Shown here: one piece after another, positions 13,876 to 60,075 of the stretch
How the letters are laid out: each line of letters opens with the position of its first letter
Numbering within the stretch: position 1 is the first letter of the stretch
Source: an uncultured Gemmatimonadaceae bacterium
Lineage (GTDB): Bacteria; Gemmatimonadota; Gemmatimonadetes; Gemmatimonadales; Gemmatimonadaceae
Reading direction: 5' to 3'
Assembly: GCA_963817955.1 (NCBI GenBank)
Contig: CAWFQK010000007.1
Coordinates: 32,001-96,000 of the forward strand
Length of the DNA stretch: 64,000 bases
Position numbers and translations under genes: made by a program
Notes under the pieces: model-generated
Told to the model about the DNA's origin: nothing
Databases searched by the model: none
The model's input: only the letters and a program-made list of their open reading frames with translations

Positions 13876-16800
13876 TTACGGTGCTCTGTAGTACCGCAAG
13901 CCGCTCATCCCGCGCCTGAAACCGGCGGCGCGAAACGCATCGAGATGCCGACTCGTGCTCGCCGGCCGACCGTCGATGATCTCGATGGCAAGGTCTCGCG
14001 TCGTCCGCGCGCTCAGGTGCTGTACCAACGATTGCGCGGCGCGCGCAACGTCTGCATCGGACGTGTCCGGACGGACGGCGATGCGGGTGCCTCGCGTTTC
14101 GGCGATCATGACGACGGTGCCGTTGATCGTGACAAGTAGCGCACCGCGGCTGTGCGGCCGCACGAATGCATCGCGCGCCGCGTCCTGCGGCATTGGGAGG
14201 GGGTAGACGTTCGCTGGATCTGCAGCCGACAGGACGATTGGCGCCGCGTCGGCCGCGTCGGTCGCCCGCAGCAACTCGATCGCCTCTGGAAGCGCGAACT
14301 GGGCGCCGGATAATCCGCGCACGAAGTATCCTCGACGCACGTCGCCGCGAAACTCGAGCCGCTTGAGCTCCCGGTAGATCGCGCGCCAGCCGATCGCCGG
14401 ACGCTCGCGCCGCCAGATCTCGCGTGAGACAATGCCATATCGATCGAGCCACTGGCGGGCAATCATCTCTCCCCACACGCTCTCATCCGCTTGTGGGCCC
14501 ATCACTCGCGGGGCGCGGACCAGCGACCATCGGCCCGGCCAGTGTGCGGCGTCGGCGCCTTCTCTTTCCGGCCGCTTCCACTTTGGCAGTCGGCGGAGAT
14601 TCGGTCGGCGTTGCACCACGTGCCGGTCGCCCGACGGTGTGAAGTCGGCGGGTAGCCAACGAGTTGGATCGGGCTGATTGTGATCGCGAGATGTCACCGT
14701 CGGTCGCCAGCGAACGACGAGCCGGAGCGCATCCACCGTGTCGTTGGTCGCGAGTCCGGCGCCCGCAAGCTCGCGCAACGCATCTCGCAGATCGCGCGCG
14801 GTGAGGGTGGTGCTGGCGAGCAACTCGTCGAAGAACGACGCACCAGCGGTCTGAAGTGTGTCGGCCACACGCTGCGCGTGTTCGCTCAGCGACGGTGTGT
14901 CCGCCGTATTGATCCAGGCGCGCGCCGTCCCACGCTTCACGAAACGAACGGTGGACAGGGTTCCCGGCTCGTCCACTGCGCGCGTGTTACCGCCAATCCA
15001 TACGAGCTCGCCGAGCGCCATCATCCTTGAAATCACATCGCCGTCGTAGGCGTCGACGCGAGACGGTAGAATCTCTCGCTCCCAGTGTTCGGCAGGGCGG
15101 GCGAGCCCGTACATCTGTCGAACGACAGTCATGGTGCCCTCGTCGCCACTGAGTCTGGTGCGCGGAGCGAGGTGCTGCCAGTGCTCGAGGAACAGTGAAA
15201 AGCGGCTGAGCTCTACTGCCTCTATTTGCTTGCGTGCCTGTGCGAGCTCGCGCCGACGTGCTTGCTCCAGCAGCCTCCGAGTACACCAGCGGGCCGTACT
15301 CGTGTCACCGCCGAATGCGCCGCGCACTAGCTTGCCGGTGCGTGTCCATTCCTCGAGACGGTCGTGCACCCATTCGGCATCGAAGGCATAACGCGTCAGC
15401 ACATCTTCGAGTGATATTGCACCGGCGAGCGACACGAATTTCACCAGCAACTCGCGCCGCGCAGCGGTTGCCGTAAGCGCCGACTGCCGAAGCGCCTCTG
15501 GCACGGCCAGATTCGCCGGGCGAGGCTCGAGCGCCGATCCGACGAAGACGCTGGACGTGGCGCCCTCCCCGAATGCGGCGCAGTAGCGGCCGTACGTCTC
15601 GGTGAGGATGAGCCGACGTTCCGTTCCGCCCCCGCCAACCGGGATGTCGATGCCCACGACGCGGCCGCGCTCGAGGAGTTCGTGCATCGGATCGCCGCGA
15701 CGTCCGTCTTCGATTGACGCAACACGCTCGTGCAACTCCTCTGGCGTGAGATCGGACGCCCGATCGAGCAGCGCCGCGAGCTCGTCGGCGGTGCGCGCCC
15801 GTGAGCCCGGGGCGGTGCCTCGTCGCCGCGCGAGAATTGCATCGAGCATGACGAGCGTCGAGTCATCCGCACCTTCACCGCCCATCAGTTCATCGAGCAG
15901 CGCGCGGTCGAGCGAGAGCAACGCCGCGCGCTGCTCGGCGCGCGGGGCGTCGTCGGCGTACATCCAGTCCATCACGAAGCCGAACTGGAGCGATGCGGCG
16001 AAGGGCGACGGCACGTCCATCTCGACGGAACGCAGCGAGATGTTGCCGGTCGCGAGATCGTTGAGCACACGTGTGAGCGCGGGCAGGTCAAAGGCGTCCT
16101 GCAAGACGTCGCGGTAGGTCTCTACCAGAATTGGAAAGGACGGGAATTCCTGCACGGCCTGCAGCAAGTCGGCCGCTTTCAGTCGCTGCAACCAGAGTGG
16201 CATGCGCCGGCGCGGATTACCGCGCGGCAGGAGCAGGGCGCGCGCGGCGTTCATACGGAAGCGCGCGCCGAATAGCGACGAGGTTCCGATTTCGGCGATC
16301 ACCCGTCGCTGCGCGTCGTCAGCGCTCATGTCGCGCAGCACTGCCACCGGCAGCCACTCGCGCAAGTTGGGCAACCGCAGCATGATGCCGTCGTCGGTCG
16401 TCTGGACCTGGATCTCAAAGGTTCGCGCACCCTGGCCGCCCAGCCACTCGCGCACACGGTTCGCCAACGCCATTCCCCAGGGCGCATTCACGCGGCCGCC
16501 GAACGGCGCGTGGATCACAACGCGAAGGGAATCACTCTCGTCGCGGAACTGCTCCACGACGATCGCGCGCTCATCGGGCACCGTCCCCGTAGCGGCGCGC
16601 TGCTGATGCACGTATTCGACGAGCGATCCCGTGGTGGCTTCGTCGGCGTGATACGTATGTGCCAGCACGGTGATCTGCTCGGTCGTTCGCACGGCATCGA
16701 GCTCGCGCCGCAGCTCGCCAATGCGCTGCGCCAAGTGCGCCGACCGCGCCGAATACTCGCCATGCCAGAAAGGCATGCGTGCTGGTGCGCCGGGCGCCGG

Positions 16801-18439
16801 CGTCACGATGACGCGATCGTGCTCGATCGCGTTGACCCGCCAGGTGGAGGATCCCAGTTGAAATACATCGCCCACGCGCGTCTCGTGCACGAACTCTTCA
16901 TCGAGTTCGCCGAGGCGCGTGCGGTCGGGCAGATTGACCGTGTAGAGCCCGCGATCGGGAATCGTTCCGCCGGACATGATAGCGACCATGCGCGCGCCAC
17001 GCGCCGCGAGCAGCATATCGGTGATACGGTCCCAGTGCAGTCGCGCGTCGAGCTCGGCCGCGACATCAGATAGGATATTTGCCGGCGAGCATCGACAAGA
17101 CTTCGTCGAACGCGCCGCGCGAGAGCTCGTGATACGGGTACGCCAAGCGCACCATGTCGAACAATGCGGCGCTCGTCCAATCGTCGTCCGCGGCGACGAT
17201 CGCGACGATCACCTGGGCCAGGACATCGAGTGCGTTCTGTACGATTCGCGTCGGCTCCACGTCGCCCTCGTGCATGGCGCGCACGACGGCAAGCAACTCC
17301 ATGGCGTCGTCGCGAAACGTGGGTACGAACACACCGCGACTCACGGCATCGAGTGAGTGGCCGGCGCGCCCGACGCGCTGTAGTCCGTTCGCGACGCGTT
17401 TGGGCGACTGCAGTTGGAGTACGAGATCAACGGACCCAATATCGATCCCCAACTCGAGAGAGCTCGTGCTGACGAGTGCGCGCACGCTACCGGCCTTGAG
17501 TGACTGCTCGAGCATCAGACGCCGCTCGCGCGATAGCGATCCGTGATACGGCAGCGCGAGCTCCTCGCCTGCCAGCGCGTTGATGCGCGCCGCCACTTTT
17601 TCGGCCTGCGCGCGATTGTTGACGAATACGAGCGTCGTGCGGGCACTGCGCATCTGCCGCAGCACCAGCGGCGTAATCGACGACCAGATGGTACTGCCGA
17701 CGTGCGCCAGATCTTCCACAGGCGACTGGACGGAGATCTCGACCTGTTTCACGAGCCCGCAGTCGACACTGCGGCAGGGGCGGGCACCGCCGGCGAGAAA
17801 GCGGGCAATTTCGTCCAGCGGCTTCTGTGTAGCTGACAACCCAATGCGCTGCGGCGATTGCTGGCACAGGCGCTCGAGCCGCTCGAGCGTGAGCGCGAGG
17901 TGCGCGCCGCGCTTCGTTCCGGCAATCGCGTGAATTTCGTCCACGATCACCGCCCGCACGCCGCTGAACATGCCGCGGCCGCGCAGCGTCGTCAGCATGA
18001 TGTGCAACGACTCCGGGGTAGTGATCAGGATGTGCGGCGACTTGCGAATCATTCGTGCGCGCGCTGACGCCGGCGTGTCGCCCGTACGCACGGCGACACG
18101 AATATCAGGAAATGCCTGGCCCGCTTGGGCAAAGCGCTCGCGCAGTTCAGCGAGCGGCCGCTCGAGATTGCGCTGCATGTCGTTGTTCAGCGCCTTGAGC
18201 GGCGACACGTACAGGATGTGAACGGCATTGCCGAGTGGCGCGCGCAGCCCGTCGACAATGAGCTGGTTCAGCTCCCAGAGAAACGCGGCGAGTGTCTTGC
18301 CCGTGCCGGTCGGCGCCAGGATGAGTGTATGCTCACCAGTCGCGATTGCCGGCCATCCCTCGCGCTGCGGCGGACTTGGCGCACCGAGCGTGTCGCGGAA
18401 CCAGGCGCGAACGAGCGGGTGAAATTGGCGGAGGGACAC
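13876..18439 (-). pseudogene. lhr: Lhr-family ATP-dependent SF2 helicase, split by a single +1 frameshift near 17070 (pseudogene or assembly error)
   Basis: APTGTGKT, TTPESL, DEIH, GLSAT, QRVGRAGH in 17066-18439; GGTIPDRG, GELDEEFV, RRGYFV..GAQFA in 13876-17016; removing one base restores LAGKYPSDVAAELDARLHWDR. Confidence 0.85.
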
Positions 18440-21759: not shown

Positions 21760-22977
21760 GTGAGTAGCATCTATGTCGCGCGCCAGCCGATCTTTGAGCT
21801 GGGCCGCGGCCTCTTTGGCTACGAGCTGCTCTACCGGCGCAACGGGTCGATCGAGCACGCCGACGGCGACAGCGACCACATGTCCGCGGAAGTCATCGTC
21901 GCGTCCATGCTCGGCATCGGGTTGCGCACGATCACGGGCGCGGGATTGGCGTTCATCAATTTCTCCGACGAGCAGCTCTTGAATCAGAGCTGGGAGCTAT
22001 TCGATCCCGGCAGCGTGGTCATCGAACTGCTCGAGCACGTCGAGTGCAATGCGGAGACGGTTGCCGCCTGTGAGTGTATGGTCCGGGCAGGCTATCGCCT
22101 AGCCCTGGACGATTACGTGTTCGATGAAGCAAGACGGCCGCTACTCGCCCTCGCTTCCATTGTGAAAGTGGATGTGCTCGACCGCTCTACCGGCGACATC
22201 CAGGAAATCGCGCGCCAGCTCCGTCCAAGCGGCGTGCGCTTGCTTGCCGAACGCGTCGAGACCGCGGCCGTGCGCGACGTCTGCGCCGCCGCGGGATTCG
22301 AGTTGTTCCAGGGCTACCTGTTCAGCCGGCCCGAGACACTCGCCAAAACGGATGTGTCGGCCGGGCAGTTGGCGACCATGCGGCTGCTCAATCTGCTACA
22401 GGATCCTGACGCGACCGACGTTGCGCTCGATTTGGCGTTCCAGAGTGATCTGGCGTTGAGCTACAAGCTGCTTCGAATTGTCAACGCTGCCGCGATGGGC
22501 GGGCGGGGAATCACGTCCATTCCCCACGCCGTGCGTCTGATCGGACGTCAGACGCTGCACCGGTGGCTTTCGGTCATCCTCGTGGCGTCGCTCGGACGCC
22601 CGGGCGACGTTTCGCACGAAATGGCGCTCACCGCGATCACGCGTGGGCGTATGTGCGAGTTGTTGGCGGCGAAATCCACGGACCGTGGTGCTGCAGGTTC
22701 GGCATTCATCGTTGGACTGCTATCACTGCTTGATGTCCTCCTCGAAGTGCCGATGGAGAAGATCCTGTCGCGGCTCGAGCTGAGCGAGGACATTCGTGGC
22801 GCCCTGCTCGATCGCGGCGGATCGCTCACGTCAGCGCTGCGCCTGGTCGAAGCCTACGAGAAGGCCGACTGGGCAAAGGCGAAAGGGCTCGCCGGCGAAA
22901 GGGGTGTGCCCGACGAGCTGCTACCGAATCTCTATCTCGATGCGCTGGGATGGGCGGCGCAACAGATCGCGACCTGA
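21760..22977 (+). CDS. EAL plus HDOD domain protein (YuxH/PdeH-like c-di-GMP signalling)
   Basis: YVARQPIF..GYELLYR, ALDDY, KVD, AERVET, FQGYLFSRP, then D.ALSYKLLRIVN HDOD. Confidence 0.9.
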   Translation: MSSIYVARQPIFELGRGLFGYELLYRRNGSIEHADGDSDHMSAEVIVASMLGIGLRTITGAGLAFINFSDEQLLNQSWELFDPGSVVIELLEHVECNAETVAACECMVRAGYRLALDDYVFDEARRPLLALASIVKVDVLDRSTGDIQEIARQLRPSGVRLLAERVETAAVRDVCAAAGFELFQGYLFSRPETLAKTDVSAGQLATMRLLNLLQDPDATDVALDLAFQSDLALSYKLLRIVNAAAMGGRGITSIPHAVRLIGRQTLHRWLSVILVASLGRPGDVSHEMALTAITRGRMCELLAAKSTDRGAAGSAFIVGLLSLLDVLLEVPMEKILSRLELSEDIRGALLDRGGSLTSALRLVEAYEKADWAKAKGLAGERGVPDELLPNLYLDALGWAAQQIAT

Positions 22978-24769: not shown

Positions 24770-25429
24770 ATGCCGCAGGCAATGCCCACCTCTCCCCTCG
24801 AGGGCGTCGAGGAATGGCTGGAGCTGGTCGATCAAGCACTTCAGGGCTTGCACCATGCCCTGAATAATCGCATCGGCTCCCTATCAGCCTTGGTTGAGCT
24901 CCACCAACTCGGCGATCTGCCCAACGACGGCACAGGGTTCGACACGTTGGCCTCCGATTTAGCGCGGCTGGAGGAGTGCAACCGAATAGTGCGTCTCCTG
25001 CCCCGTGACGGGGTCAACGGTGACGAACCGTTGATCCTCGACGACGTGCTGGCTGACGTCTTTGCGATTCACCGGTTTTTGCATCAGGTGCGGGATCAGC
25101 AGGTCACAATCGTGCCGACGCGTCACCTTGAACCCGTGCGGGCGGCGCGTTGGGCGCTTGTCCGGGTGCTCACGCTGCTGCTCGCCGACGCGAAGCGGCT
25201 GGCGAAGGAGTCGTCATCCGTCGTCCGGGCAGTCACTGAATCCGACGAGGCATGGGTGCGCCTCGAGTTCCGGGTCGGAACGCCGCTGGTCGCCGATGTC
25301 CCAATGGGCCGCGGGCTTTACGCCGAACTGCTGGCCCAGTCGTTCGGAGGAACCGTATCGCGTCGCGCCGGCGTGGCCGAGCTGCGACTTCCGACGCTCA
25401 AGGCTCGTCGCGCCGCGGACCGCCAATGA
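24770..25429 (+). CDS. Degenerate histidine-kinase-like protein (DHp with H-box plus eroded HATPase), ChpT-like
   Basis: GLHHALNNRI H-box; N-box eroded to LLLADA; no DxGxG; remnant GRGL..SFGGTV. Confidence 0.6.
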   Translation: MPQAMPTSPLEGVEEWLELVDQALQGLHHALNNRIGSLSALVELHQLGDLPNDGTGFDTLASDLARLEECNRIVRLLPRDGVNGDEPLILDDVLADVFAIHRFLHQVRDQQVTIVPTRHLEPVRAARWALVRVLTLLLADAKRLAKESSSVVRAVTESDEAWVRLEFRVGTPLVADVPMGRGLYAELLAQSFGGTVSRRAGVAELRLPTLKARRAADRQ

Positions 25430-25637
25430 CACGCAGCCATTCCTGACCCGCGTTGGCGGCGCCGGCCCGCTGGTTCTCGGCGGAGATGTCGCTGACGATT
25501 TCGCCGCGCAGGATGGTGACCTCGCTGGGTGCTTCGATGCCCAGTCGTACGCCACCGCGGTCACAGGCGAGCACGACGACGCGAATGTGGTCGCCGATCA
25601 TGATCGAGTCGCCGACCTTCCGGCCAAGAATCAGCAT
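25398..25637 (-). CDS. csrA: Carbon storage regulator CsrA
   Basis: MLILGRKVGDSIMIGD..VRLGIEAPSEVTILRGEI; follows flgK. Confidence 0.95.
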   Translation of the reverse strand: MLILGRKVGDSIMIGDHIRVVVLACDRGGVRLGIEAPSEVTILRGEIVSDISAENQRAGAANAGQEWLRVIGGPRRDEP

Positions 25638-33994: not shown

Positions 33995-36072
33995 GCAACC
34001 TCCCACGTCGCCACGCTGCTCAGCTTCACGTACGGCGGCAACTCGGCGAGCGACACCACCGGGAGATTCGGCAGTACCGGCTCCACGAGGCGGCGAAGTC
34101 CCACGCGGAGTGACGGCGGCGCGAGCAGCGGCAGCGGCCGGCCTTCCACCACGTTCGCGGTGGCCATGTTATCGAGATCGCGCAACAGCGCGCCGAGACT
34201 GTCCGGTGTGAGCATGGTTGCCGGATTCTGGTTCGCGCGCGGGCTGAACAGACCGAGCAGCGACAGCTCCAGCTTGGGTCCGACGGTGATGCCGCGCACG
34301 AGCCCGTGTTCATCCATGTGCAACCGCGCGATCGTGTTCGTCAGGGCGCGGCGCGCATGTTCGGTGAGCACCTCCGGATCCTTCGTCTGGTCCGCGGCGT
34401 CCGCGACGGCTTCGAGAATGGTCACGAGATCGCGGATCGGCACCCGTTCCTTCAACAGGCGCTGGAGCACCCGATGCAGCACACCGAGCGTGAGCTTACC
34501 GGGAACGACATCGTCCACGAGCGCGGGATGCGTCTTCTTGAGCGTGTCCACCATTTCCTGCACGTCCTGCCGTCCCAGCAAGTCGGACGCGCTGGCCTTG
34601 AGTTTTTCCATGAGATGTGTGGCGACCACTGTGGCTGGTTCCACCACGACGTATCCGAGGGATTCCGCTTCGACGCGTTTCGTCGGCGCGATCCAGCGCG
34701 CCGGCATACCGAAGCTCGGATCGAGCGTGTCGATGCCGTCCACGTTGCCAATGATACGGCCCGTATCGAGCGCCAGGAGGAAGCGCGGCATGACTTCACC
34801 CCGCGCTATTTCAGAGCCGCGCAACTTGATGACGTACTCATTTGCCGGCAAGCGAATGTCGTCGCGAATGCGGATGGCCGGCACGAGGATGCCGAGTTCC
34901 TGCGCCGACTGCTTGCGCAGCATCGAGATCCGGTCGAGCAGATCGCCGCCCTGTTTCTCGTCGACGAGCGGAATGAGCGCGTAGCCAACCTCGAGCTCGA
35001 TCGGATCGATCTGCAGGAGGTCGGACATCGGGTCGGCCAACGGTGCGGGTGGTTGCGCGGCCGCGACGGCCGCCGCCTGCGTGGCGATGCGCTTCTTTTC
35101 CGCTCTCGCGGCGACATTGCCTAACATCGCGAGACCGCCGCCCAGCACCAGGAACGGGACTTTTGGAAGACCCGGCACGAGGCCGAACACGCCGAGTACC
35201 GAACCGGCGATGGTCATCGCCCGCGGCTGGGCACTGAGCTGCATCGCCAGCGTCTCTCCCATACGGGCGCCGCTGGCGGCGTGCGTCACCATGATGCCGG
35301 CGGCGGTGCTGATGATCAGCGCCGGGATCTGCGTGACGAGACCATCGCCGACCGTGAGGATGGTGTACTGCGACAGCGCCTGGCCAAGCGGCAGCCCGCG
35401 TTGGAATGCGCCGATGAAGATGCCGCCGACAATGTTGATGGCCGTGATGAGCAAGCCGGCGACCGCGTCACCCTTCACGAATTTCGACGAACCGTCCATG
35501 GCGCCGTAGAAATCCGCTTGGCGCGAGATGTCGTCGCGACGCTTGCGTGCCTGCTTTTCGTCAATGAGGCCGGCGCTCAGATCGGCATCGATTGCCATCT
35601 GCTTGCCCGGCATGGCGTCAAGGGTGAAGCGGGCCGCGACTTCGGCGACGCGCCCGGCACCCTTGGTGATGACGATGAAGTTGATGCCGACCAGAATGAG
35701 AAACAGCACGAGGCCGACGGCATAATTGCCGCCGATCACGAACTCGCCGAATGCCTGAATGACCGCGCCGGCGTGTCCCTGGCTCAGAATGAGCCGCGTA
35801 CTGCAGACGTTGAGCGCCAGCCGGAACAGCGTGAGCAGCAGCAACAGCGACGGAAAACTGCTGAACTCCAGCGGGTCCGTGGAATACAGGGCGACGAGCA
35901 GCACGACGAGGGACATGCCGATGCTCGTGGCGAGCAACATGTCGAGCATGACGCCGGGCAGCGGCACCATGAGGAGCGCGACGATGAAGACGACGGCGAT
36001 CGCCAATCCAACGTCGGCAATGCGCTTGCCCGACGCGCCGAGCACGGGCAGAGGGGCGACGGCGGTACTCAT
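33991..36072 (-). CDS. flhA: Export gate protein FlhA
   Basis: RVAEVAARFTLDAMPGKQMAIDADL, FYGAMDGSSKFVKGD, LTVGDGLV. Confidence 0.98.
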   Translation of the reverse strand: MSTAVAPLPVLGASGKRIADVGLAIAVVFIVALLMVPLPGVMLDMLLATSIGMSLVVLLVALYSTDPLEFSSFPSLLLLLTLFRLALNVCSTRLILSQGHAGAVIQAFGEFVIGGNYAVGLVLFLILVGINFIVITKGAGRVAEVAARFTLDAMPGKQMAIDADLSAGLIDEKQARKRRDDISRQADFYGAMDGSSKFVKGDAVAGLLITAINIVGGIFIGAFQRGLPLGQALSQYTILTVGDGLVTQIPALIISTAAGIMVTHAASGARMGETLAMQLSAQPRAMTIAGSVLGVFGLVPGLPKVPFLVLGGGLAMLGNVAARAEKKRIATQAAAVAAAQPPAPLADPMSDLLQIDPIELEVGYALIPLVDEKQGGDLLDRISMLRKQSAQELGILVPAIRIRDDIRLPANEYVIKLRGSEIARGEVMPRFLLALDTGRIIGNVDGIDTLDPSFGMPARWIAPTKRVEAESLGYVVVEPATVVATHLMEKLKASASDLLGRQDVQEMVDTLKKTHPALVDDVVPGKLTLGVLHRVLQRLLKERVPIRDLVTILEAVADAADQTKDPEVLTEHARRALTNTIARLHMDEHGLVRGITVGPKLELSLLGLFSPRANQNPATMLTPDSLGALLRDLDNMATANVVEGRPLPLLAPPSLRVGLRRLVEPVLPNLPVVSLAELPPYVKLSSVATWEVA

Positions 36073-37160
36073 GCGCGGACGTTCACTTGCGGGCTGCCGA
36101 GGCGGCCACGCGTACGGAGAACGAAGGCGAGCACTTCAGCCACGGCCATGTACAGTTCGTAAGGAATGAGCGTGCCGACCTTCGCGGTCTTCAACAGCGC
36201 ACGGGCAAGCGGGCGGTTCTCCACCATCGGAACGCCTGCTTCGGCGGCGATCTCCTTGATGCGCTCGGCCACCTTGTTCATGCCAATGGCGAGCACGATC
36301 GGCGCAGGCGCGATCGATGTGTCGTACTTGATGGCAATGGCGATGTGGGTCGGGTTGACGATGACGACGTCCGCCTTGGGAACGTCCGTCATCATTTGCC
36401 GGCGGGCGTAGGAGCGGGCAATCGACCGGCGACGCTGCTTGATGTGCGGATCGCCGTCGTTCTGCTTCGACTCCTGTTTCACTTCCTCCTTCGTCATGCG
36501 CAAAGACTTCTGGTACTGCCACCACTGCCAGACGTAGTCGCCGGCGGCAAGCGCCAGGTAGGCGCCGCCCGCCGTCGCGAGCATGCGCACCGCATACTTC
36601 TTCACCACGAACAGGAAGCCGAGCTGCGATTCCTGGGACAGCGCGATCGCATCGGGCAGCGCAGCCTTGATCGCGCCGTACACGGCCGTGCCGATGATGG
36701 CCATCTTGCCAAGCGATTTGACCAGCTCGACGATCTGCTTCATGCCAAAAAGATTCTTGGCATTGGCCGCAGGGCTGATGCGCGACAGCTGCGGCATGAT
36801 GGGTTTGAGCGACATCACGCCGCGCGCTTGCAGCGCCGCCATGGCGAACGACGCTCCGGCCATTGCGACGACGAGTCCGATGATCGCACTGAACGCGTGC
36901 GTCGCGGTGTCGCGAATGAGCGTCGTGGCCGACTCGCGATCGAGTGAGATGCTGCCGAGCGACGCCAGCCCGCTGCCCATGATCTGGAACATCGCGTGGC
37001 CGGCGATCGGCGTCATCGCGCTGATCACCGCGGCGCTTCCGAGCAACGACATGGCCACGGTCAGCTCCGGGCTGCGCGGAATGCGTCCTTCCTCGTGCGC
37101 TTCGTCGCGTTTGTGGGGAGTGGCCTCCTCGGTGCGGTCCGCATCGGAATGCTCGGACAT
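36069..37160 (-). CDS. flhB: Export switch protein FlhB
   Basis: RTEEATP, MTKEEVKQE.K..DGDP, NPTH autocleavage site. Confidence 0.97.
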   Translation of the reverse strand: MSEHSDADRTEEATPHKRDEAHEEGRIPRSPELTVAMSLLGSAAVISAMTPIAGHAMFQIMGSGLASLGSISLDRESATTLIRDTATHAFSAIIGLVVAMAGASFAMAALQARGVMSLKPIMPQLSRISPAANAKNLFGMKQIVELVKSLGKMAIIGTAVYGAIKAALPDAIALSQESQLGFLFVVKKYAVRMLATAGGAYLALAAGDYVWQWWQYQKSLRMTKEEVKQESKQNDGDPHIKQRRRSIARSYARRQMMTDVPKADVVIVNPTHIAIAIKYDTSIAPAPIVLAIGMNKVAERIKEIAAEAGVPMVENRPLARALLKTAKVGTLIPYELYMAVAEVLAFVLRTRGRLGSPQVNVRA

Positions 37161-38223: not shown

Positions 38224-39465
38224 TTATTTGAAGCTCGTGATGAGACTCTGGACGATCAGGGACCAGCCATCGACCAGAACGAACAGCAACAGCTTGAAGG
38301 GCAGCGAAATCATCGCCGGCGGGAGCATGAACATGCCCATGCTCATGAGGACCGACGACACGGCGACATCGATAATGATGAACGGCAGGAAGAGTGCAAA
38401 ACCGATCTGAAAAGCGGTGCGCAGTTCGCTGATGACGAAGGCGGAGGTGAGGGTCACCATCGGGACATCTCCGATCGACGCGGGCTGCATACCGGTGCTC
38501 ATGCGGACGAACGTCTCGATGTCCTCGCGGCGAGTCTGCTTGAGCATGAACGCGCGAAACGGCCGGCTGCCGAGGTCGAGCATTTGCGACTGGCTGATCT
38601 GTCCGTCCATCCATGGCGTGAGCGCCGTGCGATTCACTTCATTGAGCGTGGGCGCCATGACGAACCCGGTGAGGAGCAGGGCCAGCGCCGCAATCAGCTG
38701 ATTCGGTGGCGCGCTCTGGGTGCCGAGCGCCTGACGCAAGAAGTTGAGGACAATGAGTATCCTCGTGAACCCGGTCATCATCAGCAGCAGCGTCGGCAGG
38801 AGAGTCATGAGACCCATCGTCACGACGACGCCGACGGTGCCACTCAGATGCAGTCCGTCCCCGCCGCCGACCTTGAGGTCCATCTGCGGGGCGAGTGGCG
38901 CGGGACCGGCCGCGAGGGGCTTGGCCGCCGATCCTTTCAGGCCGGCCAGCTTCTCTACGAGATCTGCGGGGTTCTGTCCCGCCTTCACGCCGGACACCGC
39001 TTGCTTCGCAATCTCCGTCATCTGCGCGACCGACGGCGGACGCGCCGTCACGCGTTGTGCGTTCGCTCTCGTGGACGTGGCGAGCGCGAAGACGATCGCG
39101 AGGCCCGCCGTTCGCATCGCACCCTTGAATGCCGCCTTGAAGTCGAGCGGAGAATTGGGCCGCGGTCCGTCCATCGCCACTCGGTCCTTGACATCCGCCA
39201 CCAATTCGACCTCGCCCGGCTCCAGCTCGAACAACCGATTGATCCCGCCTTCCCCCACGGAAATGGCGACGAGCCGTTCGCCCACGCGAACGACGGCAAT
39301 GCCCTGCTTGGGGCCAAGCGCCAGCCGTTGCACAACCTCCATCTTGAGGCGTGCTCCCGCGGTGGAAGTGGGCGCGAATCGCCGCAGCAACTTCAGGGCA
39401 ATGCCGAGCAACGCCAGGACGAATCCCAGCGTCATCAGTACGCCCATGATCGAACCGAAGGTCAC
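38224..39465 (-). CDS. fliP: Fused FliO-FliP
   Basis: N-terminal ~80 aa FliO-like (TM, VVQRLALGPKQGIAVVRVG); C-terminal FliP (TGFTRI, ALGTQSAPPNQ, SELRTAFQIG, MGMFMLPP, LFVLVDGW); single continuous ORF. Confidence 0.92.
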   Translation of the reverse strand: MTFGSIMGVLMTLGFVLALLGIALKLLRRFAPTSTAGARLKMEVVQRLALGPKQGIAVVRVGERLVAISVGEGGINRLFELEPGEVELVADVKDRVAMDGPRPNSPLDFKAAFKGAMRTAGLAIVFALATSTRANAQRVTARPPSVAQMTEIAKQAVSGVKAGQNPADLVEKLAGLKGSAAKPLAAGPAPLAPQMDLKVGGGDGLHLSGTVGVVVTMGLMTLLPTLLLMMTGFTRILIVLNFLRQALGTQSAPPNQLIAALALLLTGFVMAPTLNEVNRTALTPWMDGQISQSQMLDLGSRPFRAFMLKQTRREDIETFVRMSTGMQPASIGDVPMVTLTSAFVISELRTAFQIGFALFLPFIIIDVAVSSVLMSMGMFMLPPAMISLPFKLLLFVLVDGWSLIVQSLITSFK

Positions 39466-41680: not shown

Positions 41681-42994
41681 TTACTGCTTCAGATTCACCA
41701 GATCCTGTAGCATCTGGTCGCTCGCGGTGATCACCTTGCCATTCGCCTGGAAGCCGCGCTGGGCGACGATCATATCAGTGAACTCCTGCGCGAGATCGAC
41801 GTTCGACATCTCGAGGTTGCCGCTCGCGATGCTCGAGGTAGTGCCTTCACCAGAGTAGCCCAACACCGGCGAGCCGGAATTGGCGGACGTGTTGTACATA
41901 TCGTCGCCCGTGCGAACGAGGCCCGCCGGATTGTTGAAATCGGCGAGAACCAACTGGCCGAGCACCTGCGTCATACCGTTGGTGAATGAGCCGACTACCG
42001 CGCCGCTCGAGTCGATCGTGAAGTTCTGGAGATTACCACTGGCGTTACCATTCTGGCTGCGCATCACAGCGTTGTTCGAGCCGGCGAGTTGCGACAGGCC
42101 GCTCAAGCCGGTGCCGACGTCGAGCGTGATGTCGACGGCTGCGGCGCCGCTGTTCGGCGTGAACGTGATCTCCGGTGGAGTGAATCCGGTAGTATCCACT
42201 GAACCGTCGCTATTGAAGGTGATTGGGTGCGTGCCCTGCACCTCAGTGATGCCGGCCTTTGTGATATCCATGCCTGTCCCGTCGGCCTTCCAGTCCCACG
42301 TGTTCGTGCCGGTCTTCCAGATCACCAGCTTCACCTCCTGCTTGGCGCCGAGGGAATCGTAGGCCGTGATCGACAGGTCCTTGTAGGCATGCGCGTTCTG
42401 CGGAAGCGCGCGCTGGGTGGCATCGAGGGGATCGAGGGTCGTCGCCGTGCCCTTGTCGAACGGCGTTGCTGCCGCGTCGAGATCGCCGGTAAGCGAGATG
42501 GAGGTTGTCGCAACTGCCGCCGCCTGTTCTCCGACTGGAATGGTCACGTCCGTTATGGCATCCGAGAGCTTGCCGCCCACCGACATCCTTCCCTGCAGGG
42601 CAAATCCATTGCCGCCGGCGACCAGCGTGCCCTTCGAGTCGACCTGGAAGTTGCCGGCGCGTGTGTACAGGCTCTGCGAGCCCTGCCTCACAACGAAGAA
42701 CGAGGGGCCCTGGATCGCGAGATCAGTATTGTTGCCCGTCGATTCCAGATTTCCTTGCGTGAACAACGTGTCCACGCTGCCGATCTGTGAGCCGAGACCC
42801 ACCTGCATGGGGTTCAGGCCACCCGTGTCGGGGCGCGCTGCGCTTTCGATAATCTGGGCGTAGCCTTCCTTGAAAGTCACACGTCCGGACTTGAACGCGA
42901 CGGTGTTGACGTTCGCGATGTTGTTGCCGATGACGTCCATCCGGGTCTGCTGGTTGCGAAGACCCGAGACAGCGGCCGAAAGAGAGCGAAGCAT
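41681..42994 (-). CDS. flgE: Hook protein FlgE
   Basis: DVIGNNIANVNT, YTRAGNF, YDSLG, LEMSNVDLAQEFTDMIVAQRGFQAN. Confidence 0.97.
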   Translation of the reverse strand: MLRSLSAAVSGLRNQQTRMDVIGNNIANVNTVAFKSGRVTFKEGYAQIIESAARPDTGGLNPMQVGLGSQIGSVDTLFTQGNLESTGNNTDLAIQGPSFFVVRQGSQSLYTRAGNFQVDSKGTLVAGGNGFALQGRMSVGGKLSDAITDVTIPVGEQAAAVATTSISLTGDLDAAATPFDKGTATTLDPLDATQRALPQNAHAYKDLSITAYDSLGAKQEVKLVIWKTGTNTWDWKADGTGMDITKAGITEVQGTHPITFNSDGSVDTTGFTPPEITFTPNSGAAAVDITLDVGTGLSGLSQLAGSNNAVMRSQNGNASGNLQNFTIDSSGAVVGSFTNGMTQVLGQLVLADFNNPAGLVRTGDDMYNTSANSGSPVLGYSGEGTTSSIASGNLEMSNVDLAQEFTDMIVAQRGFQANGKVITASDQMLQDLVNLKQ

Positions 42995-43067: not shown

Positions 43068-43772
43068 TTAGTTCAGGATCTGGATGACGTTGGCGTACGG
43101 GATCACGAGACCGCCGGAGGTGAGGACAAGACCGTTTTGACTGGTGCTCACACCGTCGACGCGGCCGGTGACGTAGGTCTGCACGGTGACGGGCTGGCTG
43201 GAGCTGTCCTTGGCGTCCACCGAATACGTGTACATCCCGTCCGGCAGACCGGAGCTGGCGTCACCGAGGTCGATGCTCTGCTTGCCGGCCTGGAGGGCGC
43301 CCAGCGAGCGGGTACCGACTTCGACACCGGCGCTATCATAGATATGTAAAGTGGCGGAGCTGCTCGCCGCCGCGACGTCTACGGGCACGCTGGTGGAGCC
43401 TGACGTGCCGCCGACTTGAACCTGGTTGCCCATGGCGACCACGGTGTGGCCAATGGTGTTGATCGCCGCCGTTGACTGGATGGCGCCAAGCAGTGAGCCG
43501 GTCGAAGACTGCTGGTCGGTGAGCGTCGTATTGATTTGCTGGAGCTGCTCGAGGGACGAGAACTGGGCGAGCTCCGACGCCATCTGATCGCCTTGCATAG
43601 GATTGAGTGGATCCTGATTCTTCAGCTGTGCCACCAGCATCTGGAGAAATTGATCCTTGCCGAGGGCACCCCCTGCCGCAGCAGCCTCAGTGCCCGCCGC
43701 GGCTACGGTCGGCGTAGTCGTCGCGGCTGTGGTCGCGAAAGTAGCCGGTCTGTACGTCGGTGCGATGATCAT
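43068..43772 (-). CDS. flgD: Hook cap protein FlgD
   Basis: FLQMLVAQLKNQDPLNPM..LAQFSSLEQ; ATGA-coupled to fliK. Confidence 0.95.
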   Translation of the reverse strand: MIIAPTYRPATFATTAATTTPTVAAAGTEAAAAGGALGKDQFLQMLVAQLKNQDPLNPMQGDQMASELAQFSSLEQLQQINTTLTDQQSSTGSLLGAIQSTAAINTIGHTVVAMGNQVQVGGTSGSTSVPVDVAAASSSATLHIYDSAGVEVGTRSLGALQAGKQSIDLGDASSGLPDGMYTYSVDAKDSSSQPVTVQTYVTGRVDGVSTSQNGLVLTSGGLVIPYANVIQILN

Positions 43773-45469
43773 TGCTGTGAACCTCTGCGCTGGTCGCGCT
43801 GTTGTTGGCGGCGCTCGCTCTGTGACTGCTGGCGCTCGCGCGGTTCCCACTCGCCGCCGCGCGGCGAACGGCCGTTCGTTGATGCATCTGACGTGCTCTT
43901 TCCAGTTGGCGCGCCGGCGCCGGCGACCGCCGAGGCGCCGCCGCGTACCTGCAGCGACTCCAACTCGGCGCCGTCGCGGGTGAGGGCGCGCACGAGTTCG
44001 TCGCTATGCCCGCTCATCGCCTGTGCGCCCCGTGCGTCCCCCGCGTCGATTGCCGCGCTCACCGTCGAGCCGTGGAGCGTAACGCGTACGCGATCCGTGA
44101 TCCCGGCTCCGGCGTCCACGGCCAGCGTGATCTGTGACAGGGGTCGCACCGGCGCCTGATCGAGCGCTTCGAGCACGCGCGCCGTGCGATCGGCACTCGA
44201 CGGCCCGGAGACGGATGACACGCCATTGGCGCTCCGCGGTGATGCCGGTTGGTCGCGAAGCGCGAACGCCGAATCGAGTGCGCCGTATGCAGCGCGCTGA
44301 TCGATCGTTCCCTGCTGCGGCGCATGACCATTGTTCCGTGCATTCTTATTGGATCCACCGCCGAACGACTGCATGTTGCTCTGTCCCGCCGTTGCCGGCT
44401 GTGACGAAGGCGTTCCGCTGTTCACCGGGGCAACCGGTGCGGTGAATTGCTGCGGTGCTTTGGCTCCTGCTCCGTCACGCGGCGTCCAGGGAATGTTCAC
44501 GACCTGCGCAGGCGTTCCGGTGCCAAGATCTGCGACCTGCACGGATGCTCCTGTGCCGAGATCTGCGAATTGCTTGGGCGCTCTGGTGCCGAGCGTTGCG
44601 AATTGCTTGGGCGCTCCGGTGCCGGGAGCTGCGATCTGCGCGACTGGCGCCACATGCGCGACTTGCGCGATCTGCGCGATAGGAGACAACGGAACGAGTC
44701 CCGGGCGCGTCGCATCAGCCGGCGCGGCGGGGAATGCCTTCATCGAGCTGTTCGCAACGGCACCGGCTCCAATTCCTGGGAGCTCGACGTGGCCCGGATC
44801 GCGCGCACCAAGCGTGCGTAATCCTTCTTCGTTTGCGATACGCTGTAGCGCTGCGTAGGCAGACAGCGGCGCGTTGCCTGAGTCGAGCACGAGATCTGCC
44901 GCGCGTCCCTGCGTGTGCTTTGAGTTCTGCGTCCACGTAACGACTGGACCCGCAGTCTCGCGACCTTGCGCAAATAGCGAGTTTTGCCGGGTCTGGCTGC
45001 GAAATGTCTCGCTGATCGTCGCGTCGTGACCTGTCTCATTGCGGACACGGGAGATGACACGCGCCAACTTCGTCTGCAATGCCGGATCGAGCGCGCTAAC
45101 GGAGCGCACCACGTTAGCACTCGCAGCCGCACTCGCAGCCGCACTCGCAGCCGCACTCGCAGCCGCACTTACGGTCGCGATCGCCGCAGCGGGGAAGGAG
45201 GCAGTTGATCCAGGTTGCCCAGCAGCGGCGTTTGCGTCACCATCGCCGGCCGATCCGCCCTCTTCGCCAGGAGCATCCTTCCCCGTCGTCTGGTCGAGAT
45301 CGGACGTTCCATCGGGCTTCGGCGTGGGACGTAGTGCCGGTGCGTGCGCCTGCGCGGCGGCGAGCATCCCAGCGAACTCCGGCGCGCGTTCGGCATCGTG
45401 TCGTGCGTCGAATGCGCGTGTGTCGTCGGCTGTCGTGATCGGCGAGAACGCTGCGAGGGCAATGGTCAC
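43769..45469 (-). CDS. fliK: FliK-like hook-length control protein with embedded M15 zinc peptidase domain
   Basis: Canonical position before flgD; low-complexity Ala/Pro/Gly body; C-terminal T3S4-like domain (RVRVTLHGSTVSAAI..ELVRALTRDGAELESLQV) and Gln-rich tail; residues ~122-231 carry ETFRS..RQ..LFAQGR, SKHTQGRAAD, DPGHVE. Confidence 0.8.
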   Translation of the reverse strand: MTIALAAFSPITTADDTRAFDARHDAERAPEFAGMLAAAQAHAPALRPTPKPDGTSDLDQTTGKDAPGEEGGSAGDGDANAAAGQPGSTASFPAAAIATVSAAASAAASAAASAAASANVVRSVSALDPALQTKLARVISRVRNETGHDATISETFRSQTRQNSLFAQGRETAGPVVTWTQNSKHTQGRAADLVLDSGNAPLSAYAALQRIANEEGLRTLGARDPGHVELPGIGAGAVANSSMKAFPAAPADATRPGLVPLSPIAQIAQVAHVAPVAQIAAPGTGAPKQFATLGTRAPKQFADLGTGASVQVADLGTGTPAQVVNIPWTPRDGAGAKAPQQFTAPVAPVNSGTPSSQPATAGQSNMQSFGGGSNKNARNNGHAPQQGTIDQRAAYGALDSAFALRDQPASPRSANGVSSVSGPSSADRTARVLEALDQAPVRPLSQITLAVDAGAGITDRVRVTLHGSTVSAAIDAGDARGAQAMSGHSDELVRALTRDGAELESLQVRGGASAVAGAGAPTGKSTSDASTNGRSPRGGEWEPRERQQSQSERRQQQRDQRRGSQQ

Positions 45470-46089
45470 TGCTTCCGTCCTTGCAAGGCGAGCTTGCTCA
45501 AAGTGGCGACTCGTTCAGGTGGCAGCGCGGCCAGAATCGACGCTGCCTGACGCGTACCGACATAGCCGAGAATGATTTGGACGTCGCCGTCGGCCATATG
45601 CTCGAGCACCTTGGCAGCCTGCTTCGCATCCATGGATGTGAACACCTTGGCGACGCGGCGTTGCGAGGCCTCGGTCGCCGTATCGAGTGGTGCTTTCACA
45701 GCCGATTTTTTCGGCGCCGATACAGTCGGCTCCGCCAAAGTCGGCGTCGCTGTCTTTGTCGGTGCCGGTTCGGGTGCCAGCGCCGGTGCTGGTGTCGGTG
45801 CCAGCGCCGGTGCTGGTGTAGTCGCCGCTGGTGACGGAACCGCGCTGGCGAGTTGCTTCGCCGAATCGACAACCGCTACCGGCGCGCGCGCCGTGTCGAC
45901 TGGGGGCGCGGCTGCGGGCTGTCCCGACGCGACGACGGCTGTGTCGGCATGCGTCGAGTCCGCGGCATTCGCCGAGGAACCCGCCTCTGGCGGTGGGGTC
46001 ACCGGTGGCTTGGTCAGTAGTACTTTCGCGCCGGTGGACCCCGCCAATGCGACGGCGAACGTCAGTGCGAACACGACGACGGGTTTCAT
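45466..46089 (-). CDS. MotE/FlbB/YlxF-like flagellar protein (MgtE N-terminal-like domain)
   Basis: N-terminal anchor, Pro/Ala linker, VAKVFTSMDAKQAAKVLEHM..AASILAAL; position between fliJ and fliK. Confidence 0.75.
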   Translation of the reverse strand: MKPVVVFALTFAVALAGSTGAKVLLTKPPVTPPPEAGSSANAADSTHADTAVVASGQPAAAPPVDTARAPVAVVDSAKQLASAVPSPAATTPAPALAPTPAPALAPEPAPTKTATPTLAEPTVSAPKKSAVKAPLDTATEASQRRVAKVFTSMDAKQAAKVLEHMADGDVQIILGYVGTRQAASILAALPPERVATLSKLALQGRKQ

Positions 46090-51393: not shown

Positions 51394-51735
51394 TCAGATC
51401 TTCACGTCCAGGCGACCGCCGCGAGCGGCGGGGAGTTGCGCGGACGTCGATTCCTGCAGCGCGCGTCCGTACGTCAGCGGTCCCATGGCGCCGGCTTTGG
51501 CGAAGAACGCGCGTTCGTCGCCCGACAACACGCTCCAGAGTGCGGGATCGGTGCCCGGCGGCGGCTCGACGGGAACGCTCTGAGTTGCAGCGCCAGGCTT
51601 CTGCGGACCCCGCTGCGCCGGCATCTGCACGGGCCGACTCGCGGGCTGCTGCACCTGCGGCCGTGACCCATCGCGGATGGGTAGTTGCGACGGCGTCCGC
51701 GGTATGTTGGTGTTGCTGATTCCGTAAATGCTCAT
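51394..51735 (-). CDS. Small hypothetical protein inside the flgBC-fliE operon
   Basis: Fills the flgC-fliE gap, stop 1 nt before the fliE start; disordered N-half, C-terminal LWSVLSGDERAFF and RGGRLDVKI. Confidence 0.7.
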   Translation of the reverse strand: MSIYGISNTNIPRTPSQLPIRDGSRPQVQQPASRPVQMPAQRGPQKPGAATQSVPVEPPPGTDPALWSVLSGDERAFFAKAGAMGPLTYGRALQESTSAQLPAARGGRLDVKI

Positions 51736-58573: not shown

Positions 58574-58696
58574 TCGGAAAAGACGCGTGGGTCCGTCAGG
58601 GCGCAACCCTGGCAAGGGCCGGTGCTTCGACGCTACGCGGCTGAGCGGCTCCAAGCCGGCCGGCCGATGCAGTGAACCATGACATGCCGAGGGTGC

Positions 58697-59602
58697 ATGC
58701 GCATAACGAATAATACGATTGCCACCCAGAGCCTGAGCGCCTTGCAGGCCAATATGGCCGCGTTGTTGAAGGATCAGGCGCAAGTGTCGAGTCAGCACCG
58801 CCTCACGGCAGCCTCGGACGATCCCAGCGCAGCCTCTCAAATCATGTTGGCCGGCAGCTCGCTCCGGGCAATCGACCAGTACAAGTCCACCGTCCAGACG
58901 GCGACCGCCCGGGTGACCGCGGAAGATACTGCCTTGCAGCAGATCGGCGATCTCGTGTCGCGCGCCAAGACGCTTGGCTTGGCGCAGACTGGCGCCACGG
59001 CCAGTGCGCAGACGCGATCGGTTGCCAACGCGGAAATCCAACAGATCTTCCAGCAGATCGTTGCTATTGGCAACACGAAGGTCGGCGACGAGTATCTGTT
59101 CGGCGGCCAGCAGAGCACGACGGCGCCCTTTGCGACCACGGGCAGCGGGGCGACGCTCGCGTTCACTTCGACCGATCCGCAGGGACAGCGCGCCATGACT
59201 ATCGGAGCGGGTCAGACGCTTGCCGTGGGGCACGACGGCAAACAACTGCTGCTCGACAGCGGCGTACTCGGCGCGGTGCAGGCGTTGTCGAAGGCGTTCG
59301 ACCCGGCGTCCGGATCGTACGGCGACGGCGGGATCGCCACCGCACTCACGAGCATCGATTCTGCGTACAGCGCGGTGCAATCCCTCGTGGGGGAAGTGGG
59401 TGGCCAGGAGAATCGGCTCGACGTCACCGGCCAGAATCTCGACGCGTACAAGACGACCGTGACGACCCTCAAGTCCGGGATCGAGGACGTTGATCTCGAA
59501 GCCGCGATCACCGACATGGCCAGCCGCCAGACGGCGTATCAGGGGGCAATGCTGGCGACGTCGAAAGTCATGGGCCTCACACTCACCGATTATCTGAAAT
59601 GA
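58697..59602 (+). CDS. flgL: Hook-associated protein FlgL
   Basis: MRITNN, ASDDPSAA, NTKVGDEYLFGG, IEDVD, LTLTDYLK. Confidence 0.93.
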   Translation: MRITNNTIATQSLSALQANMAALLKDQAQVSSQHRLTAASDDPSAASQIMLAGSSLRAIDQYKSTVQTATARVTAEDTALQQIGDLVSRAKTLGLAQTGATASAQTRSVANAEIQQIFQQIVAIGNTKVGDEYLFGGQQSTTAPFATTGSGATLAFTSTDPQGQRAMTIGAGQTLAVGHDGKQLLLDSGVLGAVQALSKAFDPASGSYGDGGIATALTSIDSAYSAVQSLVGEVGGQENRLDVTGQNLDAYKTTVTTLKSGIEDVDLEAAITDMASRQTAYQGAMLATSKVMGLTLTDYLK

Positions 59603-60075
59603 GCGTTTTGACATTGGTCGGCGCTGAGTCTGAAGAGCTGACGGTGCGTTCCGATCTGCTGGGCGAGCTCAAGCTGCGTTCGACCGACGTGTTCTTGTTT
59701 GCGCAGGGCATTCTCGGGTTTCCCGAGTGCCGGTGCTTCGCGCTGCTGCGTGGGACGCGAGACGGGTTGTACTGGCTGCAGTCCATGGAATACTCCGCGC
59801 TGGCGTTTCTGCTCGTCGATCCCTTCACGGTGGTAGACGACTACGCGGCGGACGTTCCGTCGTCGAAGCTGGCGGATCTCGGAGCGGCGAATGCCACAGA
59901 CATTGCGATTCTCGCGGTGGTGACACTGCCCAACGCCAGCGGCGACTGTCCGACGGTGAATCTGCGGGGACCGCTGGCGATCAACTTCGGCACGCGCCGC
60001 GCGAAGCAGATCGTGACCCACGAGGGTGACTACAGCGTGCGTTGTCCTGTGGATCTTGCGCGGCTTGTTGCGTAA
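59599..60075 (+). CDS. fliW: Flagellar assembly factor FliW
   Basis: F.QGILGF, WLQS..LAF.LVDPF..DY, TVNLRGPLAIN..RAKQ. Confidence 0.93.
   Translation: MSVLTLVGAESEELTVRSDLLGELKLRSTDVFLFAQGILGFPECRCFALLRGTRDGLYWLQSMEYSALAFLLVDPFTVVDDYAADVPSSKLADLGAANATDIAILAVVTLPNASGDCPTVNLRGPLAINFGTRRAKQIVTHEGDYSVRCPVDLARLVA

Follow-up and report, generated by a model that had tools for sequence, protein, structure and literature searches.

The stretch of DNA analysed here, hereafter the window, comprises 64,000 nucleotides of an uncultured Gemmatimonadaceae bacterium (assembly GCA_963817955.1, contig CAWFQK010000007.1, positions 32,001 to 96,000) and carries a cluster of flagellar genes in which the gene in the position of fliK, the hook-length ruler, also encodes a predicted zinc peptidase of the M15 type. 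We refer to this gene as fliK-M15. Based on Pfam matches, the order on the minus strand is flgC-fliE-fliF-fliG-fliH-fliI-fliJ-(207-residue MgtE_N-like protein)-fliK-M15-flgD-flgE-fliL-fliM-fliN-fliO/fliP fusion-fliQ-fliR-flhB-flhA, with a sigma-70-family sigma factor in the fliA position, flgF, flgG, flgA, flgH, flgI, flgJ, flgN, flgK, csrA, motA and motB further along the cluster. The fla operons of Bacillus and the spirochaetes likewise have the order fliJ, small protein, fliK, flgD, flgE.

A sequence-only reading of the window had placed the gene in the fliK slot and noted its ATGA coupling to flgD, and both points hold for the minus-strand open reading frame (ORF) at 43769-45469. Four nucleotides are shared between the TGA stop and the ATG start of flgD (ATGA at 43772-43769), and four between the GTG start and the stop of the MgtE_N-like gene upstream (GTGA at 45469-45466), so that fliK-M15 is translationally coupled to both neighbours. 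Homologues begin at the identical aligned position as the 566-residue product. A search for sequencing runs containing the locus turned up three DNA runs from a single study, with shares of 0.05-0.11, and no RNA run, which bears on expression in neither direction.

Architecture of the FliK-M15 protein

A homologue search returned 253 matches at E <=0.001 among 8000 scored candidates, and we aligned the window protein with 39 sequences picked for coverage and spread from 120 listed homologues. The AlphaFold2 model built on this 40-sequence alignment has only two confident parts, residues ~121-232, where the predicted local distance difference test (pLDDT) score is mostly >90, and residues ~425-510, where it is 80-94. 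Scores fall below 50 at residues 1-25, 41-99, 236-400, 403-422 and 514-542, in agreement with the disordered ruler body that the sequence-only reading had described. Mean pairwise identity in the alignment is highest in the M15 domain (0.71), followed by the C-terminal T3S4 (substrate-specificity switch) domain (0.58), the C-terminal tail (0.44), the N-terminus (residues 1-60) and the linker (residues 233-424; 0.36 each) and residues 61-119 (0.17). Constraint is therefore strongest on the M15 domain, which speaks for a functional enzyme rather than a relic.

Sequence, motif and fold all place the inserted domain, a predicted peptidase, in the Ply500-CwlK group of LAS/M15 proteins. Among solved structures, Ply500 (E 6e-12) and LysB4 (E 6.5e-11) are matched by the family profile, and Ply500 also by the window protein as a single sequence (E 0.0023). 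With the excised domain as query, PHROGs yields phage endolysin families at E 1.6e-14, 3.5e-13 and 5.5e-13. Its best sequence and fold matches are the endolysins Ply500, LysB4, LysECD7, T5 and RB49 together with ChiX of Serratia, a top fold match whose PDB title names an L-Ala-D-Glu endopeptidase, and the fold comparison, which also returned hedgehog signalling domains, assigns it to the LAS fold. The Pfam VanY profile scores 15.6 bits on the window protein alone, below its 25-bit cut-off, and matches 27 of the 40 homologues at E <=0.01.

The residues expected of the active site are in place. The stretch S183-x-H185-x-x-G188-x-A190-x-D192 aligns with the SxHxxGxAxD motif of Ply500 and is followed by D224-x-x-H227 (DxxH); from the literature on Ply500, T5 and CwlK, we take the H/D/H set to be the zinc ligands and D224 the catalytic residue. 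R157, R161, Q162, Q168, R170, S183, H185, G188, D192, D224, H227 and E229 are invariant in all 40 aligned sequences. The compact domain marked at 44777-45106 in the sequence-only reading thus corresponds to residues 122-231, with the quoted residues present in the translation and the five it had called intact (R157, H185, D192, D224 and H227) all among the invariant positions. Among the best 80 species genomes, described below, H/D/H is intact in 80 and two carry G188A. In these two (loci L048 and L107) the motif reads SKHTAARAAD, with Ala replacing the conserved Gly and the His and Asp ligands intact.

These residues also bear on the idea that the M15 fold is a zinc-stabilised, non-enzymatic knob that binds the wall and stops the ruler from sliding back, or anchors it at the peptidoglycan and so sets a length reference. 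Such a part would suit a domain that always lies N-terminal to a disordered linker of at least 115 residues, and some LAS folds, such as the hedgehog signalling domains returned by the fold search, can serve for binding and not be catalytic. However, invariance extends beyond the metal ligands to R157, Q162, Q168, R170, D224 and E229 (40/40), and, with H/D/H intact in 80/80, this pattern is the one expected of a working active site and exceeds what fold stability needs. We therefore consider a purely structural role improbable.

The C-terminal domain is a T3S4 domain by fold search: PscP SS and FliK-C rank first and second of 48,161 chains. On the window copy, Flg_hook (PF02120) covers residues 461-511 at 17.3 bits (cut-off 29.8; E 0.0042). 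The profile matches 33 of the 40 homologues at E <=0.01 (best 2.4e-8), and the C-terminus of an orthologous FliK in a relative, which aligns with that of the window protein, reaches 34.1 bits, above the cut-off. Since the window score is sub-threshold, the T3S4 assignment rests on the homologues' Pfam matches, this orthologue and the fold search, which together uphold the T3S4-like C-terminus of the sequence-only reading. By Pfam, both M15 and Flg_hook are found in the protein from genome G249, and the window copy is sub-threshold for both. Against PDB sequences, the C-terminal profile gave only spurious repeat matches (BurrH), and neither it nor the full-length family profile found 2rrl or 5cuk, the solved T3S4 domains, whose sequence similarity to FliK-M15 is too low for HMMER detection.

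In the genome of the window (4.53 Mb, 9 contigs, 94% complete), the best Flg_hook match is fliK-M15. Two further matches, at E 0.35 on contig 4 and at E 0.63 inside the Lhr helicase ORF of the window, were rejected as chance, leaving no credible second FliK candidate by this profile; a canonical fliK elsewhere, which would have spoken against the sequence-only reading, was thus not found in this genome. The gene is the sole FliK candidate, in the slot between fliJ and flgD-flgE, and by position and fold its product is the FliK/T3S4 ruler of this organism. One could still suppose that it is a peptidase with a borrowed T3S4-like export domain, hook length being controlled otherwise, given that the Flg_hook score of the window copy lies below the Pfam cut-off and that a ruler gene could be missing from an assembly that is 94% complete in 9 contigs. 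That supposition is hardly credible for a gene that sits in the fliK slot, is coupled to flgD and has no competitor in the genome; its C-terminus aligns with FliK proteins of relatives that score above the Pfam cut-off, a T3S4 domain heads the fold search, and it has the long disordered segments typical of rulers.

The remaining regions are consistent with a ruler of this kind. Within residues 1-60, the presumed part for type III export and cap contact, at least 90% of the 40 sequences share F32, A33, G54, S56, L58 and D59. The linker at residues 233-424 is the presumed ruler segment; across 75 species genomes, the spacing between M15 and T3S4 ranges from 115 to 451 residues (median 149) and is never below 115. 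In the C-terminal tail, R553 is invariant, and at least 90% of the aligned sequences share Q557, R558 and G562. The M15 domain profile, searched against the window's own genome, gives E 3e-52, and no other M15 domain of the Ply500/CwlK type was found there. The protein has no detected cell-wall-binding domain. Coordinates are given in Table 1.

Table 1. Coordinates in the window of fliK-M15, its predicted regions and selected flagellar genes
Feature	Coordinates	Strand	Basis or detail
fliK-M15 gene	43769..45469	-	single 566-aa ORF, GTG start, TGA stop; ORF list
N-terminal region, residues 1-60	45290..45469	-	conserved FAGMLA and GTSELD motifs
Predicted LAS/M15 zinc peptidase domain, residues ~121-232, Ply500/CwlK-like L-Ala-D-Glu endopeptidase type	44774..45109	-	
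A/G/P/S/Q-rich disordered linker, residues 233-424	44198..44773	-	pLDDT <50 over 236-400 and 403-422
T3S4 (substrate-specificity switch) domain, residues ~425-511	43937..44197	-	
Basic R/Q/S-rich C-terminal tail, residues 512-566	43772..43936	-	composition; predicted terminal helix 544-563
207-aa MgtE_N/FliG-like protein between fliJ and fliK	45466..46089	-	Pfam MgtE_N, E 8e-6
flgD (hook cap)	43068..43772	-	Pfam FlgD, FlgD_ig, FLgD_tudor
flgE (hook)	41681..42994	-	Pfam Flg_bb_rod, FlgE_D2, Flg_bbr_C
flhB (export-gate component)	36069..37160	-	Pfam Bac_export_2, E 2.4e-111
flgJ, 110 aa	27601..27933	-	Pfam Rod-binding only

Several neighbouring features of the window were recorded alongside. The MgtE_N-like protein at 45466-46089 is Ala/Pro-rich in its N-terminal half, with the MgtE_N/FliG-like domain lying C-terminal, and an ORF of 154-212 residues fills the slot between fliJ and fliK in most of the relatives' clusters inspected. 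FliO (residues 26-117) and FliP (217-408) are fused in a single 413-residue ORF (38224-39465, minus strand) in place of two genes, and a 113-residue Pro/Gln-rich ORF without a Pfam match (51394-51735, minus strand) lies between flgC and fliE. A protein with EAL and HDOD domains (21760-22977, plus strand) adjoins motA/motB on the opposite strand and is a possible motility regulator linked to cyclic di-GMP. The csrA gene (25398-25637, minus strand) adjoins flgK/flgN, and fliW (59599-60075, plus strand) adjoins a flagellin-like gene (58679-59602); together these make up the CsrA-FliW-flagellin partner-switch set known from Bacillus. Outside the flagellar genes, an Lhr-type helicase (13876-18439, minus strand) is apparently split into two ORFs, the upstream one (17066-18439) stopping within WH_Lhr (profile positions 1-70 of 168) and the next (13876-17016) starting at positions 90-168; the break near 17016-17066 suggests a frameshift, an error in sequencing or a genuine split.

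Distribution of the fusion

The fusion is phylum-wide, and it is the rule among genomes that carry the M15 domain, as the conservation survey suggested by the sequence-only reading made clear. Of 301 genomes sampled evenly from the phylum, 53 match the full-length profile at E <=1e-5. The window's family contributes 36 of these (69 sampled), another family in its order 11 (of 125), and three families from other orders 2 (of 6), 2 (of 47) and 1 (of 4). As read from the match table, 31 of the 36 matches in the window's family cover both domains, one extends from the N-terminus through the linker, two are C-terminal only, one covers M15 only and one is a weak linker match. M15 and T3S4 also occur together in other orders of the class (genomes G027, G266 and G116), and the G249 protein has both by Pfam.

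A pattern scan with one genome per species gave the same picture for the best 80 of 175 genomes with a relative of the M15 domain. M15 and the T3S4 profile lie in one frame in 75 of these 80, and the frames in the other five run off a contig or locus end. The record labels of 77 begin with Gemmatimonad- or Longimicrobi-; the remaining three read 'bacterium', 'uncultured bacterium' and a Kuenenia metagenome-assembled genome, the last of which is probably a binning error. In a representative library of 1.84 billion proteins, 449 clusters (50% identity) match the domain profile at E <=1e-30. The best 150 of these belong to the fusion family by the M15 profile, and 137 of the 150, for which only lengths were counted, have at least 400 residues with the domain internal. 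Short relatives of the domain (69-223 residues) number only six, mostly without contig information, and are probably fragments; the search of proteins in this length range identified no free-living donor family. Homologues carry public names such as 'M15 family metallopeptidase', 'YcbK (DUF882)', 'CwlK' and 'hypothetical', so that their identity as FliK goes unnoticed.

Proposed role in opening the cell wall

The genome has a single Rod-binding match, in a FlgJ of 110 residues that consists of this domain only; as the sequence-only reading had noted, it has no hydrolase domain. Rod-binding matches occur in 19 of 61 sampled genomes of the window's family. In all ten family frames that were read, the real FlgJ has ~100-130 residues, ends within ~60 residues of the Rod-binding domain and is without a hydrolase. 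Open frames of 503-752 residues in some relatives were considered as FlgJ fusions and rejected, as they consist of Arg/Gly-rich read-through without stops ahead of the true start, in DNA of high GC content. FlgJ proteins without a hydrolase domain occur in many phyla. The Rod-binding profile (PF10135) has no match in the FliK-M15 protein, which is therefore not a FlgJ, and which may work like the hydrolase half of one.

The presence of a hydrolase-less FlgJ in the same cluster fits a self-directed role, and this counts against the notion that FliK doubles as a bacteriolytic enzyme, released once the outer membrane has been breached and attacking neighbouring, Gram-positive walls. The closest sequence and fold relatives of the domain are indeed phage endolysins that act on such walls, Salmonella releases FliK into the medium, and no immunity gene would be needed if the outer membrane shields the producer. 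However, the protein lacks a cell-wall-binding domain and FliK is a low-copy protein in studied systems, and we regard an attack on neighbours as very improbable.

How the peptidase could reach the wall is suggested by the N-terminus. There is no Lys or Arg in the first 10 residues and no twin-arginine motif, and the highest 19-residue hydropathy is 1.53; this crude test of composition and hydropathy gave no Sec- or Tat-like signal and no transmembrane segment in the protein. The only evident route to the wall is therefore the type III apparatus of the flagellum, by which FliK is exported in the species studied. We infer export, activity, the site and timing of action and the link to length control from these sequence features, and rod-tip delivery that couples length control to wall opening is plausible, with Salmonella FlgJ as precedent for a wall hydrolase that travels by the flagellar export system.

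On this basis, we propose two tasks for FliK, a reading that we hold to be somewhat probable: it would bring an active endopeptidase for stem peptides to the wall where the flagellum is assembled, and afterwards serve as ruler and switch. The M15 domain would probably help to make an opening in the wall through which the flagellum can pass. FliK would leave through the type III apparatus unfolded and N-terminus first, as a rod/hook-type substrate, and the peptidase of ~110 residues would emerge at the growing rod tip in the periplasm with the linker and T3S4 still in the channel or cytoplasm. A linker of 115-451 residues leaves enough length for the peptidase to emerge and fold at the rod tip before the switch domain has left the cell. 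Once folded, the peptidase would take up zinc and cut peptide stems locally, helping the rod, and perhaps the P-ring, through the sacculus, as a stand-in for the hydrolase domain of FlgJ in beta- and gammaproteobacteria. Later copies of FliK would measure the hook, and their T3S4 would flip FlhB to late substrates; T3S4 domains act on FlhB in studied systems, and we assume from Salmonella that they interact here as well.

A more specific version, unlikely but worth stating, is a tethered drill, in which the M15 domain folded at the rod tip belongs to a chain that is still threaded through the channel. Cutting would then be limited to the reach of the linker and timed by the molecule that measures the hook, so that hole-making and length sensing would be coupled, and the wall-engaged domain could set the zero point of the ruler or stop it from sliding back.

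Several observations weigh against the proposal that FliK opens the wall for the rod. The window copy falls below the Pfam gathering scores for both of its domains, M15 and Flg_hook. A folded zinc enzyme must cross the narrow channel unfolded and refold outside, an endolysin-type enzyme freed in the periplasm would need scarcity or restraint, and no inhibitor or immunity gene for the peptidase was identified. Within the window's own family, the genomes G140 and G089 match the full-length profile through its C-terminal part only, the latter with an internal stop. Eight genomes of a sister family in the same order also match only through the C-terminal part, and we examined five of them (96-99% complete). 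Their flagellar clusters have the same order, from fliE to fliJ followed by the MgtE_N-like gene, fliK, flgD, flgE and fliL, and their FliK has 513-838 residues with Flg_hook present and M15 absent. FlgJ has 105-113 residues and is hydrolase-less in four genomes; in G021, no FlgJ ORF was called and the open frame has only 227 residues. Searches with a single domain and with the profile found no M15 domain of this type in these five genomes, so that the module is not required for flagella in close relatives. The hydrolase activity of Salmonella FlgJ is likewise reported to enhance flagellar assembly without being essential (PMC13584718).

Taken together, the M15-less relatives and the dispensable activity of Salmonella FlgJ make it preferable to regard the module as a means of raising efficiency rather than as a drill that assembly cannot do without. 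Of the interpretation offered by the sequence-only reading, the account of the parts therefore stands, whereas the implied necessity of the peptidase is weakened. It seems more likely that M15 was lost in the sister family than that it was gained repeatedly elsewhere, because other orders have the fusion too, as does Longimicrobiales according to record labels. The M15-less loci of the sister family are L016-L021, L131 and L132 (genomes G107, G233, G162, G021, G122 and G190). Among 38 ORFs over ~39 kb of the G233 flagellar cluster, no replacement wall hydrolase was found by Pfam; several ORFs of this cluster are without a Pfam match, one of them of 780 residues (L131:1391-3733).

The sister family also bears on where an exported, active peptidase would act. 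M15-less relatives retain flgI, flgH and a short FlgJ in the syntenic cluster, so that passage of the rod needs no M15, and the enzyme might remodel the wall round the finished basal body, in connection with the P-ring, stators, periplasmic scaffolds or local recycling. The identity and conservation of the M15 domain fit this use too, and the timing would be broad, given that Salmonella produces and exports FliK for as long as rod and hook are being assembled. However, no gene of the cluster points to a special periplasmic structure, and we judge remodelling of this kind to be quite unlikely. A contribution to opening the wall for the rod, in the helping sense given above, remains the reading we prefer.

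Comparison with known systems

No description of a FliK carrying a peptidase was found in open-access papers and bioRxiv preprints (subscription journals lay outside this scope), in line with the sequence-only reading, which knew of no described case. We also know of no enzymatic domain in the FliK, YscP and PscP proteins described so far. Compared with FliK of Salmonella and Escherichia coli and with YscP/PscP, which share the T3S4 domain (2rrl, 5cuk), the protein described here differs in having a folded, predicted catalytic domain inside the ruler.

The nearest functional parallel is the dual-domain FlgJ of beta- and gammaproteobacteria, a rod cap with a C-terminal glucosaminidase, which resembles FliK-M15 as a wall hydrolase fused to an early flagellar type III substrate. 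The carrier there is the rod cap, whereas here it is the ruler, next to a separate FlgJ of 110 residues; the FlgJ enzyme is a glycosidase that cuts glycan, whereas the domain in FliK is of the LAS/M15 peptidase type, which cuts the peptide stem. Hydrolase-bearing FlgJ is reported to reach the wall through the flagellar channel at the assembly site (PMC8517470, PMC13584718).

A second group of systems has a FlgJ without hydrolase and relies on separate enzymes. SltF of Rhodobacter is a flagellar lytic transglycosylase with Sec-dependent export. The flagellar lytic transglycosylases in this group, which bind a single-domain FlgJ, belong to the SLT family and are proteins in their own right, unlike the M15 domain fused to FliK. 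The lytic transglycosylase BB0259 of Borrelia is reported to solve the same problem where FlgJ has no hydrolase, and in its mutant cryo-tomography is reported to show rods stalled beneath the wall (PMC8517470).

Peptidases of the same type are known from other settings. ChiX has a role in chitinase secretion. It and the Ply500, LysB4, LysECD7, T5 and RB49 endolysins share the SxHxxGxAxD and DxxH motifs with FliK-M15; they are stand-alone or fused to wall-binding domains and are released by holins or Sec, and none is part of a flagellar protein. A closer analogy is TagX, which serves the type VI system of Acinetobacter and is reported to be a Ply500-like L,D-endopeptidase that is required for the machine to cross the wall (PMC5061870). 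The likeness lies in the use of a Ply500/CwlK-like L-Ala-D-Glu endopeptidase, with conserved metal and active-site residues, by a trans-envelope machine crossing the wall of its own cell; TagX differs in being stand-alone and anchored in the inner membrane, with a periplasmic C-terminal domain, and in not being secreted by the machine it serves (PMC5061870). FliK-M15 is not a TagX, because it has no membrane anchor (highest 19-residue hydropathy as given above).

A wall hydrolase on a flagellar export substrate and a LAS endopeptidase dedicated to a machine were both known already, and FliK-M15 differs from dual-domain FlgJ in its carrier and its predicted chemistry. The passage of the rod through peptidoglycan is under re-examination, and the fusion raises the questions of whether a zinc enzyme can thread the type III channel and refold outside, and of how an endolysin-like activity stays harmless to its producer. 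Cultured Gemmatimonas species make the fusion testable, and the sister lineages whose FliK lacks M15 provide a natural control. If the proposal is true, FliK-M15 would be the first T3S4-family ruler to carry a catalytic domain, and the tethered drill, if true, would be a new way across the sacculus. For the flagella of this phylum, delivery of a peptidase by the ruler would then represent a third solution to crossing the wall, after hydrolase-bearing FlgJ and separately exported lytic transglycosylases.

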